This document shows, piece after piece, positions 26,084 through 45,054 of a stretch of DNA of 46,969 bases (its first letter is position 1; every line of letters begins with the position of its first letter). Made by a program: the position numbers and the translations under genes. Source of the stretch: a virus. Lineage: Duplodnaviria > Heunggongvirae > Uroviricota > Caudoviricetes. Location: the IMG/VR virus record IMGVR_UViG_3300045988_152627. One strand, 5' to 3'. Under the pieces are notes generated by a model. The model saw only the letters and a list, made by a program, of their open reading frames with translations. It did not search any database and was not told the DNA's origin.

Positions 26084-26159
26084 TTGGTGGCCCCTACCGG
26101 ATTTGAACCGATGACCGTGCGATTATGAGTCGCCTGCTCTAACCACTGAGCTAAGGGGC
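26084..26159 (-). tRNA. tRNA with CAU anticodon, most similar to tRNA-Ile2 (ileX-type); elongator Met not excluded
   Basis: 76-nt cloverleaf GGCCCCTTAGCTCAGTGGTTAGAGCAGGCGACTCATAATCGCACGGTCATCGGTTCAAATCCGGTAGGGGCCACCA: 7-bp acceptor stem, D and T arms, CTCATAA anticodon loop, encoded CCA. Confidence 0.85.
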
Positions 26160-26329
26160 CATATTTGATCTGTTTGTCTGGTGTGGCGCCGCGCACGAAA
26201 ATCCCAGCCAATAAATTCAGGATTTTTGGGCGCGGCGGCATATCAGACAAACATGGTTGATGCGTGCGCCCATGAGAAAAGCGCATAGAATGTTGTAACT
26301 ATATATTTATATAATTATAGAAATATATA

Positions 26330-38569: not shown

Positions 38570-38864
38570 TGTCTCTGTTAAAATCCCGCCGTATTGACAT
38601 GAATGCGCCATTGGTGGACACTTTCCGAGCCGTAGCAAAATCTACGGTCGGGATTAGCCTCCTGAATAACACGATGGCGCATACCGCGTTAGCGGTTTTT
38701 TTATGCGTAGAGCACTGTTACGCCCAAATTATGGTGGGTCGTACAGGGGCGGAGAAATCCGCGCCGGTTCGTCATTGTGTCCGGTAAGGCTAACCCTGTA
38801 CGGCTCACCACCATTTGATTAGCCTCGAATGGCGGTGATAGTTCCATATATTGGAGATATCACA

Positions 38865-39056
38865 ATGACAAACTTACCCCATGACTATTACGTCAACCTC
38901 GTAAAGATCCTTCTCAAGAAAGCCTCATACGCCGATAAATTCCGCCTGGCTGAAATAATCGAGCGCGAAGCTATGCGCATCGCCAGCAACGATAACGCTG
39001 TTTCTGACGCAAAAATCTCCCTCGTAACCAAAGTAGTTATGGGAGGTGCAAAATGA
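38865..39056 (+). CDS. Hypothetical small protein, coupled to the antirepressor
   Basis: 63 aa from ATG 38865 (RBS GGAGAT); stop overlaps the antirepressor start. Confidence 0.35.
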   Translation: MTNLPHDYYVNLVKILLKKASYADKFRLAEIIEREAMRIASNDNAVSDAKISLVTKVVMGGAK

Positions 39057-40195
39057 AAACGCTTCCGACCGTTAACACCCTACAGCCTATCCTGCATAAC
39101 CAGATCCCCGTTATCACCACGGAGCTGCTTGCCAAACTATATGGCTGTAGCGTCGAATGTCTTCACAGAAATCACCACCGTAATAAGTCCCGGTTTACAG
39201 AAGGAAAACATTTCATAGTTGTAAAAGGTACAGATCTCCAAAGTTTGAAAATCTCTTTAAGAGATTTTCAAACCATCGCGAATAACGTTAGAAAGCTCAT
39301 CCTCTGGACCGAACGCGGGGCTGCACGTCACGCTAAAATGCTCGAAACCGATCAGGCATGGGATGTATTCGAACGGCTGGAAGACTGCTACTTCAACCAG
39401 AACGCGCAAACGGCCGCGACCGTAACCGTCTCACCAAACAATGCTCGTGAGGTTGTCGATACGCTCAACGCTAAACCAATGTATTACGTTAAGGTGTGCA
39501 ACAACGAGCCACTCACAACCTCAGCCGATGTTGCCCAAGCATTCAGCACCACAAACAATTCCATCGTTATGGCCATCGATGCGTTACGTATTCCTCGCAC
39601 AGCTGCGGCGCGTCACTTCTTTAAAGAACAACGACCGCTGGAAGGAAGCGACCGCGAAATAACAATCTATCGCATGACAAAAGACGGATTTACCTTGCTC
39701 ATGGAAAGTATCGACGGTCCAGGCGTGAAGGATATCAAGCTGGCCTACATTGAAGCCTTTAACGCTATCAGCAGCGTGTTAAAGGCAGAATACGAGCGAA
39801 TGCTATACAACCGACTGTATCAGGAAACAAAGATTATCCGAACGGCAACAGAACATCATCGGCTATTAACGGAACCAAACTACCGCAAGACACTAATCAA
39901 AGAATTTGACAAGGCGACGGAGAAAACTAAAGCGGCACTAAATCTACCAACAATGACTAAAGATGATGTGATATCAGCCTTACTTCTTGATCTGCTCAGA
40001 AACGCCAGAGCACTTATCAGTTTTGACGAAAACCTGAATCCTCAGCTCAAGCTACTACCACCGACAGGCAAAGTAGTCGACCAAGCAGATCACAACAGCA
40101 TACTCAGCGTACTGGATGCAAACCTGCCAGCCAGGACACTACAGGAGCTGATAAAAATATCTGCGGATAAACTGGCCGCAGGTGCAAAACCATAA
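39053..40195 (+). CDS. Phage antirepressor (KilA-N/ORF6N-like N-terminus plus Rha-like domain)
   Basis: 380 aa; N-terminal ITTELLAKLYGCS...KHFIVVKGTDL and central TSADVAQAFSTTNNSIVMAIDAL resembling the Rha motif. Confidence 0.65.
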   Translation: MKTLPTVNTLQPILHNQIPVITTELLAKLYGCSVECLHRNHHRNKSRFTEGKHFIVVKGTDLQSLKISLRDFQTIANNVRKLILWTERGAARHAKMLETDQAWDVFERLEDCYFNQNAQTAATVTVSPNNAREVVDTLNAKPMYYVKVCNNEPLTTSADVAQAFSTTNNSIVMAIDALRIPRTAAARHFFKEQRPLEGSDREITIYRMTKDGFTLLMESIDGPGVKDIKLAYIEAFNAISSVLKAEYERMLYNRLYQETKIIRTATEHHRLLTEPNYRKTLIKEFDKATEKTKAALNLPTMTKDDVISALLLDLLRNARALISFDENLNPQLKLLPPTGKVVDQADHNSILSVLDANLPARTLQELIKISADKLAAGAKP

Positions 40196-40200
40196 AACAA

Positions 40201-40219
40201 AGCGCCCGATTTGGGCGCT
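40201..40219. terminator. Bidirectional terminator between convergent genes
   Basis: Hairpin AGCGCCC-GATTT-GGGCGCT between 39053..40195 (+) and 40230..40865 (-). Confidence 0.5.
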
Positions 40220-40229
40220 TCTTCAATTC

Positions 40230-40865
40230 TTAATATTTCGGTGTAATCAGTAGCGATACATGCCCTGATTTGTCACGAGAAACGTAATACTCGCCTCTCT
40301 TAGTCTTGAACTCAGCTTTCTGCATATCTGATTTAACAATCTGCTCTAACTGCGCAATCACGGTGTCTCTTTCACTTGACGCATCCAAGACTTCAACTGC
40401 TACGGCCATAGAAAGCAAGGAATCAGAGTTAGGCTTGGATACTCGCCATAATAACTCAGAAATCTTCCCATCCTTATCAACTCTAGCCCGACCGTTAACA
40501 GATGAGTTGATGGCAAATTCAACGGTGTTGTTACCTTGTTTAACAGACTTAATTCTTATAGTGGAGGTGGCTTTTCCTGATGTAGCGATGCCTTCAAGGT
40601 CATCATTATATAACTGCTTAAACTTATCTACGGTCACACCATCAAAAGCAGCTCCGGTAGTAGCCGCAGTGTTGGAGTCTTCTGGGATCAAGGTCACAGC
40701 CGCAAGAGTATTAACAACTACAAAAGTAGCAATCCCGAGAAAGCCACTCACTAAAACAGCTTTGAACTTACCACCAGAAGACGAGGCACATTGTTTCCGA
40801 TATGCGCCACGAACTACGAAGAAACACAAAATCAGGCTAATAATAAACGCCACCAGCATCCCCAT
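40230..40865 (-). CDS. Membrane-anchored protein of unknown function
   Basis: 211 aa; two N-terminal TM helices followed by a soluble Ser/Thr-rich domain. Confidence 0.45.
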   Translation of the reverse strand: MGMLVAFIISLILCFFVVRGAYRKQCASSSGGKFKAVLVSGFLGIATFVVVNTLAAVTLIPEDSNTAATTGAAFDGVTVDKFKQLYNDDLEGIATSGKATSTIRIKSVKQGNNTVEFAINSSVNGRARVDKDGKISELLWRVSKPNSDSLLSMAVAVEVLDASSERDTVIAQLEQIVKSDMQKAEFKTKRGEYYVSRDKSGHVSLLITPKY

Positions 40866-41500
40866 AGAAATCTCCTTTTAGATATAAGGGTAAAGCAATA
40901 TCGTATTAGATCTTCCTTAAGACACAACCCCCCCTCCCCCCATACAGGGTGCCCTTTACCGGAGTTCCGGCCCCTTCTCAAAAGCATCAAAAAAAGCTCG
41001 AGATCGAGTACCGGAACTCATGCCACCAGATAGCTCCACATCGTTTCCAATGCTTCGCCGCCGTGTGCGCCCTGTGGCCCACAATCATGCCATTGGTCGT
41101 CTGATATACCTTCTTCTGCTCATTGAGCACAGGCGAGTTGTCGCACTCCTGCCTTTCTCAGACTCGACTTAGTTTAGATCGCTGTTCCTGGCTTGCGTCA
41201 GCACACTTTCCCCTTGTACGCATACCCGCGCGCCACTTCGCCCAAAAACACCGAACCCAACGAAGTAGCAAAGACAACGACGCGAGCGTGAGTCTGAAAC
41301 GTGCACCAGTAAAAAAGGGGTTGCAGGCGCAAAAAGATTTGATTATCTTTAGACGCAAGAAAGCCGCCCCAATCAAGAGGTGTCTTTTTAAATCCAGCCT
41401 ACCAAGCAAGATTTAAATTTCAGACTGAAAACCGCCCGGCAAGGCGGTTTTTGTCTTTCTGGCGCTTACATTACACCACCAGAAAACGATCCGTAAAGGA

Positions 41501-41773
41501 TCATTTGATCCCTTGTTCCAATTCTGCCGACACTTTAACCTTTTCCCATACAAGGGTTTGCAGCCTTAACAGAATCGCATCTTTATCAAGGTGTGAAAGA
41601 TCCTTAACCATATCGTCAAACGACAGAACGCGAATGGCCATCTCAATGACCCTCGGCGGCTCCCCCTTCTCATATCGCTTATATGTAGCCAACGATATCC
41701 CAAACTCTTCGGCTGCTCGCTCCTGCGTCCAGTTCATCCCACGACGCCATAATTTCAATTCGTAACCCGTCAT
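41501..41773 (-). CDS. XRE-family HTH regulator
   Basis: 90 aa; HTH WTQERAAEEFGISLATYKRYEKG; divergent from 41875..42300. Confidence 0.6.
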   Translation of the reverse strand: MTGYELKLWRRGMNWTQERAAEEFGISLATYKRYEKGEPPRVIEMAIRVLSFDDMVKDLSHLDKDAILLRLQTLVWEKVKVSAELEQGIK

Positions 41774-41874
41774 TACATCCTCTACCTTTCCCTAGATATT
41801 CAATAAATTAGACATAGCCACTCACGACAAAATAAGATGTATTAACAATCCAATCTTTAGGCTTTAGGTAAAAA

Positions 41875-42300
41875 ATGAGTTCATCTGCTTTTGTCACCGT
41901 GGTCACTGGTGTAAGTGTTTTTGTTCTAGGCCAACTCATCGTCAAAGGAGCTATTGAGCCTTACATTTCATTCAGGGAACAACTAGGGAAAATATCCAAT
42001 CTGTTATTATGTAACCAAGCAAAAATAGTGAATCCTGGCTCGAACTTAAAGCCAGAAATCATTCATGATCTAAAAGATTCCGCAGCACAGTTAATGGCAA
42101 AATATTCCACTTTACCTTTCTATATCAAAAAGTTACATATCGGCTTTCGTCTTGTTCCATCAGCCACCGAGATTCTTGGGGCAGCTCGAAATTTGAACTA
42201 TATAGCGTCAATACATGAAGGTAAGACTGGGGAGAATCCATCTAAGCATCTCGAAGAGATTGGCCATATGCTCAAAATACCAACTACCTATTCAAGCTAA
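41875..42300 (+). CDS. Hypothetical protein with N-terminal TM helix
   Basis: 141 aa; N-terminal hydrophobic helix SAFVTVVTGVSVFVLGQLIV; low-GC gene. Confidence 0.4.
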   Translation: MSSSAFVTVVTGVSVFVLGQLIVKGAIEPYISFREQLGKISNLLLCNQAKIVNPGSNLKPEIIHDLKDSAAQLMAKYSTLPFYIKKLHIGFRLVPSATEILGAARNLNYIASIHEGKTGENPSKHLEEIGHMLKIPTTYSS

Positions 42301-42366
42301 CCCAATGTAAGTTATCGGCTTGCCCCACAATAAGTTATCTATCTTCAAACGCCCCTATATTAACAC

Positions 42367-42393
42367 TCGCAAAGTGTCAAAATGACACTTTGC
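42367..42393. terminator. Bidirectional terminator, 11-bp perfect stem
   Basis: GCAAAGTGTCA-AAA-TGACACTTTGC between convergent genes 41875..42300 and 42403..42783. Confidence 0.55.
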
Positions 42394-42402
42394 GCATTGT
42401 GT

Positions 42403-42945: not shown

Positions 42946-43245
42946 TCAGATGTTAAACGCTATTCGTTTTCCTGTGGGAAGCTCAACATCCAGGCTTAAT
43001 TTGCCTCCCATAGCTTCAACGTAACGCTTTAATGTCGCCAGCTTTAAATCATTTCCGCGCTGCTCCAGCTTTGTTACTGCTGGCTGACTAATACCCATCG
43101 CCTCAGCAACCTGTTTTTGTGATAACTGGAGTTCTTCACGCATCATCTGCAAGCCGACCTCAAGAATCATCTCATCTGCCATTTCTTTAATTCGCGCCTG
43201 GCTTTCAGGTGAACGGCTGGCAATCACCTCATCTAATGTTCTCAT
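42946..43245 (-). CDS. higA: HigA-type HTH antitoxin
   Basis: 99 aa; HTH LSQKQVAEAMGISQPAVTKLEQ; downstream of and overlapping the toxin gene. Confidence 0.75.
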   Translation of the reverse strand: MRTLDEVIASRSPESQARIKEMADEMILEVGLQMMREELQLSQKQVAEAMGISQPAVTKLEQRGNDLKLATLKRYVEAMGGKLSLDVELPTGKRIAFNI

Positions 43246-43598
43246 TACTTGCTCTCCAGTGTGTTCAGATGTGCTGCAAACTCATCCTCAGCTATACGCA
43301 CCAGTTTTTCATAAAACCGTTTATCGTTACTTTTGTCTCCTGCACAAAGAACGATGGCCCGGCGAATCGGATCGAACGCATAAAAGGCTCTTATCGGACG
43401 GCCAGAAAACTGAACGCGAAGCTCTTTCATATTTTTGTACCGAGAACCTTTTACGGTATCGGCATATGGCCTGGGTAACTCAGGTCCGTAAACCTGTAGC
43501 TTTTTCAAATCAGCCAAAACCTTTTCCTGAAGAGCGTCTTCTTGCTCATTTAGCCAGTCGTCAAATCGCTGGCTAAAAAGTACCGTCCACATGCTCAA
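43245..43598 (-). CDS. higB: RelE/ParE-superfamily toxin (HigB / Gp49-like)
   Basis: 117 aa; toxin-first order with a 1-bp overlap to the antitoxin; sequence pattern typical of HigB-like toxins. Confidence 0.75.
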   Translation of the reverse strand: MSMWTVLFSQRFDDWLNEQEDALQEKVLADLKKLQVYGPELPRPYADTVKGSRYKNMKELRVQFSGRPIRAFYAFDPIRRAIVLCAGDKSNDKRFYEKLVRIAEDEFAAHLNTLESK

Positions 43599-44423: not shown

Positions 44424-44469
44424 TTATTATATCTACGATGGTAGGAAATCTTTTCCTATGTGGCAATAG

Positions 44470-45054
44470 AAATTTACTACATTGCGTATAAGACAAGTTT
44501 TCTATGTCTAATAGGAAATGATGTTTCTTATGTTTTATCGCGTTCTGATGGCTACTGTGTGCGTATTTATCGACGTTTATTGATAAGGCTCACCCCTTCC
44601 TCCTGCAAAGCCCGGCCGTAGGCCTTATTTCGGCCTTATATAAATTGATTTTGTATAGTTCGAAACGCGCCGTTTCGAAAAGGATGATCAGGCTGCACCA
44701 TGCCTCCGGCAAGTGCCGGAGGAGGTATATTTGAGCGTAGCGACTCGAACCGGCGCGAGCTTTAGCTCGCTGCAAGGGCGAACATATTCACAGGCAAAGC
44801 CTGTGTAAGTTAAATAAAGAAAGTCTTAATAAAAGAAAGTGATTTTGCATTTATTTGTTTAGTGCATCTATTATAAAAAACCATTTGCATATACATATCA
44901 AAACTGTGGATAACTTGATTAGCTGATGCCTGTAAAGGCGATATTTACGCTGTGTTCAAGTTTAGAAAAAATCAATTCAGCCTGTTTTTTGAACAGATAT
45001 TTTATTGCGACGTAGATAATCCTCCGGTAAAACCGGATTCATCATTCAGGTGGG
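44470..45054. promoter_or_regulatory. Candidate plasmid replication origin (oriR-like) downstream of repA
   Basis: Non-coding region with an AT-rich stretch (44800..44900) next to a consensus DnaA box; position relative to repA as in IncFII replicons. Confidence 0.5.
44905..44913 (-). promoter_or_regulatory. DnaA box (TTATCCACA on the minus strand)
   Basis: Plus-strand TGTGGATAA, exact match to the DnaA box consensus. Confidence 0.6.

Follow-up and report, generated by a model that had tools for sequence, protein, structure and literature searches.

The closest described counterparts of the locus analyzed here are the ColE1/pMB1-type (ColRNAI) plasmids, in which a primer promoter with a GATC cluster and a GTAAT -10 element drives a transcript of ~550 nt, the first ~110 nt of which contain three stem-loops (the first of them being, when read from the opposite strand, a terminator), and in which a G-rich run is found ~20 nt before the RNA-to-DNA switch, its distance to the primer promoter being roughly 500-570 nt; this position of the run is the criterion for a ColE1-type origin used here. 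The transcript (RNAII) is the preprimer of such plasmids and RNAI its antisense RNA, and their replication depends on RNase H and DNA polymerase I while needing no plasmid Rep protein. In ColE1 itself, rop lies directly downstream. Dual replicons within a single phage are exemplified by P1, where oriR/RepA serves the plasmid state and oriL/RepL serves lytic growth, and R-loop priming is known from the origins of phage T4, as well as from mitochondrial CSB II, a G5-6AG7-8 tract associated with R-loop/G-quadruplex primer formation.

Genomic context of the locus

The window, i.e., the whole stretch of 46,969 nt that was analyzed, is that of a ~48-kb Escherichia coli phage-plasmid, which combines a myovirus with an IncFII RepA, ParA and a P1-like C4/icd/ant immunity system. 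The region of interest is the accessory and maintenance part of this phage-plasmid, its constant core being an HTH gene and a ~585-nt non-coding element; toxin-antitoxin and immunity genes adjoin the cargo found there. Its main features are:

39053-40195, plus strand: ant gene, convergent with the left cargo gene
40199-40221, both strands: bidirectional terminator hairpin common to ant and the left cargo gene (9-bp stem, 6 GC pairs)
40230-40865, minus strand: left cargo slot, gene of a 211-aa protein with two N-terminal TM helices and an alpha/beta domain of ~135 aa, predicted to be periplasmic
40915-41500 (to ~41510), minus strand: conserved non-coding element of ~585 nt, proposed ColE1-type RNA-primed origin with an RNAII-like preprimer
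41501-41773, minus strand: gene of a 90-aa XRE-type HTH protein (Pfam HTH_3, E 6e-7; phrog_6962)
41783-42356, plus strand: right cargo slot, an inserted 574-bp cassette with its own AT-rich promoter region and a 141-aa gene (41875-42300)
42368-42394, both strands: perfect 12-bp palindrome CGCAAAGTGTCA-AAA-TGACACTTTGCG, located between the 126-aa gene and the HTH gene/cassette and unique in the window

The 211-, 90- and 141-aa ORFs are situated where an earlier note on this DNA had placed them, and its assignment of the 90-aa product to the XRE HTH regulators agrees with the Pfam match listed above. The same note had the genes lying in low-GC DNA, which applies to the 141-aa cassette only (gene 39.4%, upstream spacer 31.7%), as the 211-aa gene (43.2%) is close to the window mean of 44.4% and the non-coding block, at 49-52%, is actually richer in GC than its surroundings.

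Phage-plasmids of this family are found in Escherichia, Salmonella, Klebsiella and Citrobacter, the available members including 72 E. coli genomes and 62 plasmids; Yersinia was the host on which related virions were isolated. The block is present in all 62 matching plasmids and in three Yersinia phages, the records of which have been deposited as complete phage genomes, and an annotation for it is missing from all the public records that were examined. No MOB-suite replicon type is given in PLSDB for the family plasmids examined, no replication protein besides RepA is found in the RefSeq annotation of one complete relative, and GC skew showed no origin signal. A literature search yielded nothing on vB_YpM_39 and no paper on the 48-kb phage-plasmid family or on the block; pSLy3 was rejected as a member of the same group, since it belongs to a different, 114-kb one, and a metagenome match (L058) turned out to be a chance 20-mer.

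Conservation and RNA structure of the non-coding element

The element is conserved, non-coding and, on its minus strand, possesses an RNA structure exhibiting compensatory changes. When E. coli sequences are compared with their Salmonella/Citrobacter relatives, the block is 88.6-90.8% identical, as opposed to the 68-87% seen for parA, ant, the HTH gene, higBA and repA, and it stays ~90% identical even where the HTH protein has fallen to 69-74%. Substitutions are spread evenly over the codon phases (24/24/23), 1-nt indels are present, and of the RNA-sense ORFs with at least 15 codons, none is conserved. On the plus strand, a single ORF (41020-41172, 50 codons) has been kept open; it lacks a Shine-Dalgarno sequence, and approximately every second nucleotide change within it alters the protein. 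A protein-coding or pseudogene reading of the block is ruled out by the missing codon periodicity, the 1-nt indels and the breakage of its ORFs in other lineages. What had previously been described as a non-coding block flanked by the genes of interest is, hence, non-coding in that the HTH (RNA-sense) strand of the 635-bp stretch at 40866-41500 holds no ORF conserved across lineages; the role of a spacer does not suit it, the block being the most constrained and the most informative feature of the region.

As regards structure, the Alifold energy of the block amounts to -187.6 kcal/mol for the minus strand versus -133.8 kcal/mol for the plus strand, with 99.3% of the cells of the alignment paired. 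Compensatory (double-sided) changes were seen at nine pairs (37 cells), compared with 0-2 pairs in slid-partner controls, and nine such pairs were reached in 2 of 500 shuffles. One hairpin exists in five distinct variants with its pairing kept, and such pairing-preserving substitutions indicate continuing selection. In one relative (L050), two adjacent hairpins have been lost in a clean 50-nt deletion.

Attempts at matching the block to a known kind of element were made along several lines. Rfam 15 (GOLLD, ROOL, HEARO and OLE included) gave no match at gathering score, and even at E<=10 the matches within 40700-41900 were terminator-driven only; no iterons, direct repeats or repeated operators were found in the block. 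A type I toxin-antitoxin (hok/sok-like) identity was dropped, as a conserved small hydrophobic-peptide ORF was not found, and so was a XerCD cer-like site around ATGCGTACAA, which resembles the XerC arm and is not accompanied by a XerD arm (by eye, only 2 of 11 positions fit the cer consensus). A single-stranded-DNA promoter (Frpo/ssi) was considered because homologues of the HTH gene, known at 33-65% identity from 3782 plasmids, most of which are conjugative, are located in the leading regions of such plasmids, e.g., ygeA in those of IncI plasmids; it was rejected since the fold is not one long hairpin, blastn detects no similarity to conjugative plasmids, and the plasmids carrying the block are typed as non-mobilizable. 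Linkage of the block to the more distant HTH homologues (Serratia, Providencia and IncL/M plasmids) was rejected as well, the block being absent from those loci. Wherever the element does occur, the HTH gene is always directly upstream of it, travelling with the block and not with the 141-aa gene.

A ColE1-like control region at the 5' end

The following smaller features of the element are needed for a comparison with ColE1-type replicons:

41488-41510, minus strand: three Dam sites spaced as GATC-N4-GATC-N7-GATC, a cluster that overlaps both the HTH ORF, at its end, and the proposed primer promoter, at its -35 region
41468-41497, minus strand: proposed RNAII-like primer promoter (-35 TTTACG at 41497-41492; -10 TGTAAT/TAATGT at 41475-41468; upstream TG; start at ~41464)
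41426-41453, both strands: stem-loop I, 11 pairs followed by TTTTTGTCTTT on the plus strand
41356-41460, plus strand: proposed RNAI-like antisense RNA of ~105 nt (promoter TTGCAG at 41321-41326, 17-nt spacer, TATCTT at 41344-41349)
40928-40941, minus strand: G6AG7 run, located where the element ends on its 3' side and proposed to form an R-loop shortly before the RNA-to-DNA switch

The 5' control region of the element is homologous to ColE1-type primer promoters. The three-GATC pattern, the only one of its kind among the 133 GATC sites of the window, has the spacing known from the primer promoters of the ColE1 family (GAT[CT]AAAGGATC-N7-GATC) and is followed, as in these promoters, by a GTAAT -10 element and then by the hairpin AAAAACCGCCTTGC[C/A]GGGCGGTTT. 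The proposed primer promoter, which was read from the sequence, aligns with the ColE1/L070 promoter TTGAGA-17-(G)TAATCT, and its hexamers are invariant in 17 sequences, in which four spacer positions vary; a strict consensus promoter scan found neither this promoter nor the proposed RNAI-like one. Stem-loop I is almost the same as the hairpin by which RNAI is terminated in true ColE1-type plasmids (~1700 small plasmids match), and in two of those, L070 and L071 (Rfam RNAI 56.5 and 88.9 bits, respectively, the latter with Rop downstream), the match falls exactly on the RNAI 3' end and the RNAII promoter, on the same strand.

Local alignment of the block scored 99 against L070 (shuffles 24.7 +/- 4.2) and 50 against ColE1 (shuffles 19.7 +/- 3.5). 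Pairwise blastn of the primer promoter region against L070 gave 75% identity over 85 nt (E 5e-9), a database-wide blastn retrieved three 5.5-kb plasmids at E 0.01, and the best match of a ColE1-family nhmmer profile in the window was on the minus strand, at 41507-41428 (E 8e-4). With the same profile, another terminator of the window reached 7 bits, the block reaching 10 bits, and part of the profile signal is, therefore, generic.

Terminators had been noted earlier as bounding the region, and terminator-like hairpins are indeed present at 40199-40221, 41426-41453 and 42368-42394 (the region totals 14, versus 4.6 +/- 2.0 in shuffles), the second of them being more than a terminator, as it matches the RNAI terminator/RNAII stem-loop I of ColE1-type replicons. 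We propose that this stem-loop would act on the plus strand as a strong intrinsic terminator of an RNAI-like RNA and, on the minus strand, as the 5' hairpin of an RNAII-like RNA and a weak terminator of the HTH gene.

Three stem-loops (41360-41386, 41387-41417 and 41426-41453) are predicted on both strands, the middle one having kept its pairing via compensatory changes in five sequence variants, and we infer an RNAI-like transcript from the plus strand. The energy of the middle stem-loop is -4.5 to -5.8 kcal/mol on the plus strand versus -8 to -12 kcal/mol on the minus strand, which makes the case for a well-folded antisense RNA weaker. The Rfam RNAI model (RF00106, gathering 47 bits) was not reached either in the window (18.1 bits on the plus and 20.3 bits on the minus strand) or in L066 (19.9 bits), the sub-threshold signal coming mainly from the terminator hairpin and both strands being matched.

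The G-run and the body of the proposed RNAII-like RNA

At the other end of the element, the G6AG7 run, nearly invariant in 17 sequences, is separated from the GTAAT -10 element by 530-534 nt, the corresponding distance of the terminal G6CGG run being 493-571 nt in nine ColE1-type plasmids and 548 nt in ColE1. Conservation ends ~13 nt past the run, which Alifold pairs with the invariant CAACCCCUUUUUU at 41311-41324. In relatives devoid of cargo (L022 and L050), an intrinsic terminator, the hairpin GGGGC-GAA-GCCCC, is located just past the run (~15 nt) as a counterpart of the hairpin at 40199-40221.

Between these two ends, the likeness to the ColE1 family is lost. The ~400-nt RNAII body shows no detectable similarity to ColE1-family RNAII (pairwise BLAST against ColE1, E ~1), and a seven-member ColE1-family nhmmer profile matched only the 5' 80-100 nt (profile positions 99-180), for which reason full-length homology to ColE1 RNAII was rejected. 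The surroundings of the RNA-DNA switch cannot be aligned to those of ColE1-type plasmids either, the run reads G6AG7-TTGTG and not CAGGGGGGCGGAGCCTATGGAAAAAC, and, unlike in ColE1-type replicons proper, the RNAI model stays below threshold and no Rop homologue was found, the place of rop being taken by cargo genes. A Rop-like role for a 62-aa gene situated downstream in ATCC 25922-type plasmids was considered and rejected, as its product had no Pfam/NCBIfam match, Rop included. Finally, whereas the ColE1-type replicons are small plasmids, the block is part of the genome of a tailed phage, 48 kb in size, where an IncFII RepA replicon is its neighbor.

Nearly the same G6AG7 tract, on the RNA-like strand and at the end of a promoter-driven transcript, is found in mitochondrial CSB II, a likeness to be taken as a lead only, CSB II and the T4 origins being an unrelated system.

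A proposed RNA-primed origin and its main alternative

We think it rather probable that the block is a divergent ColE1-type RNA-primed replication origin with cargo slots beside it; such an origin is proposed to need no Rep protein. A promoter situated immediately after the end of the HTH ORF, with three Dam sites overlapping it, would give rise to a structured, RNAII-like minus-strand RNA of ~550 nt, the G6AG7 run at the end of which would form a persistent RNA-DNA hybrid, host RNase H and DNA polymerase I then making the primer. The ~105-nt RNAI-like antisense RNA from the plus strand would stop at the 41426-41453 terminator and pair with the preprimer at its three 5' stem-loops, thereby limiting priming, and the DNA just downstream of the origin, as well as the gap upstream of the HTH gene, would take up different small cargo genes in each relative. 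The existence of the transcripts, the priming and the time at which the origin would be used (plasmid state or lytic growth) are what we infer from the features described above. It counts against an origin that an IncFII RepA replicon is already present, a second origin not being strictly required. The RepA origin is situated at about 44.4-45.0 kb, and initiation at the block would be expected at about 40.9 kb.

A bolder version of this proposal, which we put forward as possible though doubtful, is that a tailed temperate phage carries a highly divergent, RNA-primed ColE1-type second origin dependent on host enzymes only, probably for lytic growth or amplification and gated by antisense RNA and by Dam methylation of the triple GATC at the primer promoter. 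P1 would be similar in being a plasmid prophage with C4/icd/ant immunity and a second origin near the immunity region; unlike P1, the present phage-plasmid has no RepL-like protein, and its candidate second origin would make use of nothing but host enzymes and an RNA primer. If true, this would explain why RepA is the only replication protein encoded and why cargo has built up immediately downstream, in reach of expression by read-through of the primer RNA. Should the block work as a ColE1-type origin at all, a widespread 48-kb phage-plasmid family would have an unrecognised second replicon. This would matter for the typing of these elements, for the control of their copy number both in the lysogenic state and upon induction, and for incompatibility with small ColE1-like plasmids, which are very common, and it would bear on how a tailed phage amplifies its DNA without a phage-encoded replication protein. 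The ColE1 family would, moreover, extend to RNAII bodies without recognisable similarity, which could serve as a comparison for the parts of RNAII needed in priming.

The alternative that survives best, unlikely as we consider it, is a discrete, structured non-coding RNA of ~550 nt that does not prime and instead takes part in lysogeny/copy-number regulation, host-factor sequestering or anti-defence, its promoter/terminator module being common to ColE1-type plasmids. The covariation argues for an RNA and not for a primer specifically, the 400-nt core without RNAII similarity is closed by a long-range helix, and the invariant unpaired purine-rich stretches AGAAGAAGG and AAGGGGAAAG are possible binding sites; the intrinsic terminator right past the G-run in cargo-less relatives, too, is what a stand-alone RNA gene would have, and the want of an Rfam family match also speaks for such an RNA. 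The three-GATC cluster, a typical feature of ColE1 primer promoters, is, however, part of the promoter homology, the G-run lies at the ColE1 distance, and phage replication genes, in the presence of which a host-only origin would be superfluous, are lacking. Nor was a convincing complementary target found elsewhere in the window, where the candidate antisense matches were rejected as chance-level 11-14-mers (the best being 14-mers at E ~0.08).

Cargo genes beside the element

Both membrane-protein genes are cargo cassettes that have been gained and lost among otherwise near-identical relatives, in keeping with their earlier designation as morons. Their predicted topologies stand as well: Kyte-Doolittle profiles and AF2 helices agree on two N-terminal hydrophobic segments in the 211-aa protein (approximately residues 1-23 and 33-62) and on a single one in the 141-aa protein, which is otherwise modelled as a helical bundle (AF2 pLDDT 79). 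Neither protein has a match in Pfam, NCBIfam or PADLOC, PHROGs lead to unknown-function families only (phrog_7512 for the 141-aa protein), and structure searches returned no specific match (for the 141-aa model, Foldseek against the PDB gave none at E<=0.001). A profile search of 1.84 billion representative proteins with the 211-aa family gave only eight matches, none of them annotated, and homologues of the 141-aa protein form 36 clusters on Enterobacterales plasmids.

It has been suggested that these genes are the functional units of the region, acting in defence or superinfection exclusion, with the HTH protein controlling the divergently transcribed 141-aa protein and the block serving as mere spacer. 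Both proteins are, indeed, membrane-anchored, their location beside toxin-antitoxin and immunity genes is an accessory one, and a homologue of the 141-aa protein is encoded next to an Abi_2 gene. They also share with prophage morons and exclusion membrane proteins of the T4 Imm, HK97 gp15 and P22 SieA types the small size, the membrane anchor and the occurrence in variable cassettes of a temperate phage, and the modelled topology of the 211-aa protein (inner-membrane anchor and a periplasmic domain of ~135 aa) is compatible with the general design of known exclusion proteins without demonstrating exclusion. We nevertheless regard this reading as quite improbable. The pairing of the HTH and 141-aa genes has been created by the 574-bp insertion, whose boundaries (41783-42356) were derived from an alignment with NZ_CP009073.1, the plasmid of E. 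coli ATCC 25922, and which is absent from ATCC 25922-type plasmids and missing from most relatives, so that the co-occurrence of both genes is not conserved. When neighbourhoods were compared, as the earlier note had advised, the four loci examined for P0021, a homologue of the 141-aa protein, had unrelated neighbours (e.g., Abi_2 or ParE/Phd), with no HTH gene called alongside. Adding to this, the proteins bear no sequence or structural likeness to any known exclusion or defence family, and the supposed spacer is better conserved than any nearby gene. The membrane proteins are better seen as interchangeable cargo in two insertion hot spots beside the element than as a regulator-effector unit, and we propose that insertions are tolerated in both slots, i.e., in the DNA directly downstream of the proposed origin and in the gap preceding the HTH gene.

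There is only a slight chance that the block is an inactive remnant of a past co-integration between a ColE1-like plasmid and the phage-plasmid. This would account for ColE1-likeness being recognisable only in the 5' 100-150 nt, but is at odds with the ~90% identity of the block over Escherichia, Salmonella, Citrobacter, Klebsiella and Yokenella lineages (above that of every flanking coding gene) and with its continuing selection for pairing. A long structured 5' leader controlling cargo expression, as the co-oriented cargo genes directly downstream and the lack of an intervening terminator in the window might suggest, is just as improbable, the block being fully conserved both in relatives without a downstream gene (L022, L050 and L069) and where the downstream genes are unrelated.

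The 141-aa cassette is moron-like in having its own promoter region and terminator. In L050, the right slot is occupied by an unrelated 103-aa gene. The palindrome at 42368-42394 may serve as an operator or form a terminator-like hairpin; in ATCC 25922-type plasmids, it precedes the start codon of the HTH gene by ~25 nt.

Membrane-protein genes as interchangeable cargo

Three open reading frames that an earlier note had described as two membrane-protein genes and an XRE-type regulator are all present, and they adjoin a conserved non-coding element (hereafter, the block) that is more interesting than the membrane-protein cargo first noted.

40230–40865, minus: 211-aa protein, two N-terminal hydrophobic helices
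about 40915–41500, minus: the block, directly after the HTH gene
40928–40941: nearly invariant G6AG7 run, 530–534 nt from the −10 element
41020–41172, plus: 50-codon ORF on the strand opposite the proposed RNA
41321–41349, plus: plausible promoter TTGCAG-17-TATCTT, ~105 nt upstream of a strong plus-strand terminator
just after the HTH stop codon: GATC-N4-GATC-N7-GATC cluster, GATCAAATGATCCTTTACGGATCG
41501–41773, minus: 90-aa XRE-type HTH protein
41783–42356: 574-bp insertion (relative to ATCC 25922-type plasmids) carrying the 141-aa gene
41875–42300, plus: 141-aa protein, one N-terminal hydrophobic helix
42368–42394: perfect 12-bp inverted repeat, 3-nt spacer, unique in the window

Terminator-like hairpins were likewise found (40199–40221, 41426–41453 and 42368–42394), whereas the low GC content attributed to the region is confined to the 141-aa gene (39.4%) and the spacer preceding it (31.7%), with the 211-aa gene (43.2%) close to the window mean (44.4%) and the block GC-richer (49–52%). 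Beyond the hydrophobic helices, a confidently modelled alpha/beta domain of ~135 residues is predicted for the 211-aa protein and a helical bundle for the 141-aa one.

Both membrane-protein genes are interchangeable cargo. Three relatives (L022, L050 and L069) carry nothing in the left slot, beside the block. A 62-aa gene occupies it in the Yersinia phages and the ATCC 25922 plasmid, a 54-aa ORF in L067, and a 211–218-aa gene in the window, L004, L033, L034 and L066. Very few proteins belong to the 211-aa family: searches of 5.8 billion proteins and of 1.84 billion representatives gave 8 clusters and 8 hits, respectively, and all of its homologue loci examined lie in this slot. On the other side, an unrelated 103-aa gene sits in L050 where the window has the 141-aa gene, and P0021, a homologue of the 141-aa protein, adjoins Abi_2 or ParE/Phd genes at the four loci examined, and at none of them was a neighbouring HTH gene called. 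The proposal that the HTH and 141-aa genes form a regulator–effector module conflicts with this insertion analysis and is thus unlikely, and the finding as first described is one of ordinary, variable membrane-protein cargo without functional assignment.

Throughout the phage-plasmid family, the block is always preceded by the HTH gene. Homologues of the HTH protein occur in 3782 plasmid records, 3303 of them conjugative (e.g., L036, IncI pSTM709; L059, IncI-gamma/K1; L037, pOXA-48-like), and frequently map to the leading region, between oriT and ardA, under the gene name ygeA. The more distant of them are small regulators common on conjugative plasmids (e.g., ygeA in IncI leading regions), and their loci lack the block. 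Where relatives lack the 141-aa cassette, the HTH start codon is ~25 nt downstream of the palindrome at 42368–42394, which is therefore a candidate operator and may not be a terminator.

A conserved and structured non-coding element

The constrained core of the region is the block, an unannotated (in all records examined), strongly conserved, structured non-coding element between the cargo slots, which was found in 62 of 62 matching plasmids and in the Yersinia phage records. It is 88.6–90.8% identical to Salmonella/Citrobacter relatives, as opposed to 81% for parA, 68% for ant, 70% for the HTH gene, 79% for higBA and 77% for repA, and its identity remains at ~90% in relatives from Klebsiella aerogenes, Citrobacter amalonaticus and Salmonella, where that of the HTH protein is down to 69–74%. 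Substitutions show no preference for any of the three codon phases (24/24/23), 1-nt indels are present, and the RNA-sense strand has no conserved ORF. The antisense ORF at 41020–41172 stays open in all lineages despite 10–18 nt changes and includes a hydrophobic stretch (GRLIYLLLLI), but it is probably open by chance, because a Shine-Dalgarno sequence is lacking and roughly half of its changes are non-synonymous.

The block is predicted to fold as RNA on the minus strand, that of the HTH gene (RNAalifold, −187.6 kcal/mol versus −133.8 for the plus strand), with 99.3% of cells paired in a 17-sequence alignment. Nine pairs (37 cells) were kept with changes on both sides, versus 0–2 with partners slid by 1–3 columns, and only 2 of 500 shuffles reached nine, although the sample comprises only about six lineages and the structure derives from the same sequences, so that most helices are backed by invariance or one-sided changes only. 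Five sequence versions, all pairing, are seen in a GAAA-loop hairpin (columns 465–480 of alignment A6), five covarying pairs in the hairpin at columns 249–286, and GCUU/AGGC, GGUU/GACC and GGUU/AACC versions in the stem-loop at 41387–41417, whose minus-strand stability is twice that of the plus strand. A clean 50-nt deletion in L050 removed two adjacent hairpins. In L055 (low-coverage metagenome contig ERZ791802 NODE-7666), a 22-nt deletion (columns 337–358 of alignment A5) takes out the 5' strands of two predicted helices; the copy may be defective or wrongly assembled, or the deletion may count against those two helices.

Likeness to ColE1-type primer control regions

The 5' end of the block is ColE1-like, with a control region homologous to ColE1-type primer promoters. 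The GATC cluster, the only such arrangement among the 133 GATC sites of the window, is followed ~17 nt further on by GTAATGT and then the hairpin AAAAACCGCCTTGCCGGGCGGTTTT, which parallels the ColE1-type layout (GAT[CT]AAAGGATC-N7-GATCC ... CGTAATCT ... AAAAACC[A]CCGC-loop-GCGG[T]GGTTT). Similarity to the 5.5-kb plasmid CP077351.1 (L070) extends over at least 85 nt (75% identity, pairwise E 5e-9; local alignment score 99 versus 24.7 ± 4.2 for shuffles), and the match in L070 and L071 coincides exactly, and in the same orientation, with the 3' end of their RNAI, the antisense RNA (a true RNAI by Rfam in both, at 56.5 and 88.9 bits, respectively, with Rop downstream in L071), and the promoter of RNAII, the preprimer. 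Searching with the 196-nt 5' module retrieved, besides the phage-plasmid family, ~1700 small plasmids matching at the hairpin. Three stem-loops are predicted on either strand of the first ~110 nt, the ~105-nt span from the plus-strand promoter to its terminator is of RNAI size, and the 530–534 nt separating the G-run from the −10 element compare with 493–571 nt in nine ColE1-type plasmids (548 in ColE1); conservation of the block ends ~13 nt past this run.

Against such a reading, the ~400-nt body cannot be aligned with RNAII, Rfam RNAI scores only 18–20 bits on the block and matches both strands, the middle stem-loop is weak in its antisense version, Rop was not found, and in relatives devoid of cargo a terminator immediately follows the G-run; a ColE1-family profile has its best window match at 41507–41428 on the minus strand (E 8e-4), yet its 10 bits there compare with 7 bits for another terminator in the window. 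For these reasons, the block is not filed under the ColRNAI family as currently defined. On balance, it nevertheless seems rather probable that it works like a ColRNAI element, being a relative that has diverged but retains a recognisable control region. Most likely it would provide this tailed phage-plasmid with a second, RNA-primed origin that has a cargo-insertion hot spot on each side. The main rival, a stand-alone structured RNA of other function sharing only the promoter and terminator module with ColE1-type plasmids, appears considerably less probable. A decayed relic and a leader for a cargo gene are both unlikely, as the former conflicts with the conservation of the block and the latter with the cargo-less relatives.

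The phage-plasmid background

The window is a ~48-kb phage-plasmid. The 2.9-kb stretch around the three genes has matches in 72 complete genomes of E. coli, with few exceptions on 47–50-kb plasmids, and in three Yersinia phage records (vB_YpM_39, 41 and 44) that were submitted as complete phage genomes. In RefSeq, a complete relative is annotated with myovirus structural and lysis genes, ParA, a HigB/HigA-like toxin–antitoxin pair and, as the only replication protein, an IncFII-type RepA. No helicase, primase, polymerase or phage initiator is annotated in L032 (NZ_CP020518.1), only IncFII RepA. Other products listed there are an MT-A70 methyltransferase, a Ref nuclease, DUF1064 and DUF3560 proteins and, close to the terminase, three proteins with ParB/Srx domains.

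26085–26160, minus: tRNA, CAT anticodon
37290–37586, minus: ryfA-like RNA (full-length Rfam match, 143 bits; gathering score 80)
38629–38815: isrK-like (65.7 bits) and C4 antisense (70.8 bits) RNAs (Rfam)
39053–40195, plus: ORF6N/Rha anti-repressor (380 aa), preceded by a 75-aa icd-like ORF
42946–43598, minus: Gp49/HigB-like toxin (117 aa) and HTH antitoxin (99 aa), one-base overlap
44424–45054: 630-bp non-coding stretch downstream of repA

The isrK and C4 RNAs, the icd-like ORF and the anti-repressor (38629–40195, plus) are a P1-type immI module, and the 211-aa/HTH/141-aa region lies between it and the RepA replicon; the annotations of several E. coli relatives show the anti-repressor gene split into two pseudogene halves. 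By analogy with IncFII plasmids, 44424–45054, whose central ~320 bp are 75–80% identical to Salmonella/Citrobacter relatives, is likely the RepA-dependent origin. A HicA/HicB pair occupies the HigBA position in L050 and L069, so the toxin–antitoxin module is also swappable. The ryfA-like RNA has the ParA operon on one side and a 179-aa HTH gene on the other; since the ryfA of Salmonella codes for the small toxin TimP, this may be a type I toxin–antitoxin locus that stabilises the phage-plasmid. The tRNA, called tRNA-Met by ARAGORN and tRNA-Ile in RefSeq relatives, probably decodes isoleucine after lysidine modification of its anticodon.
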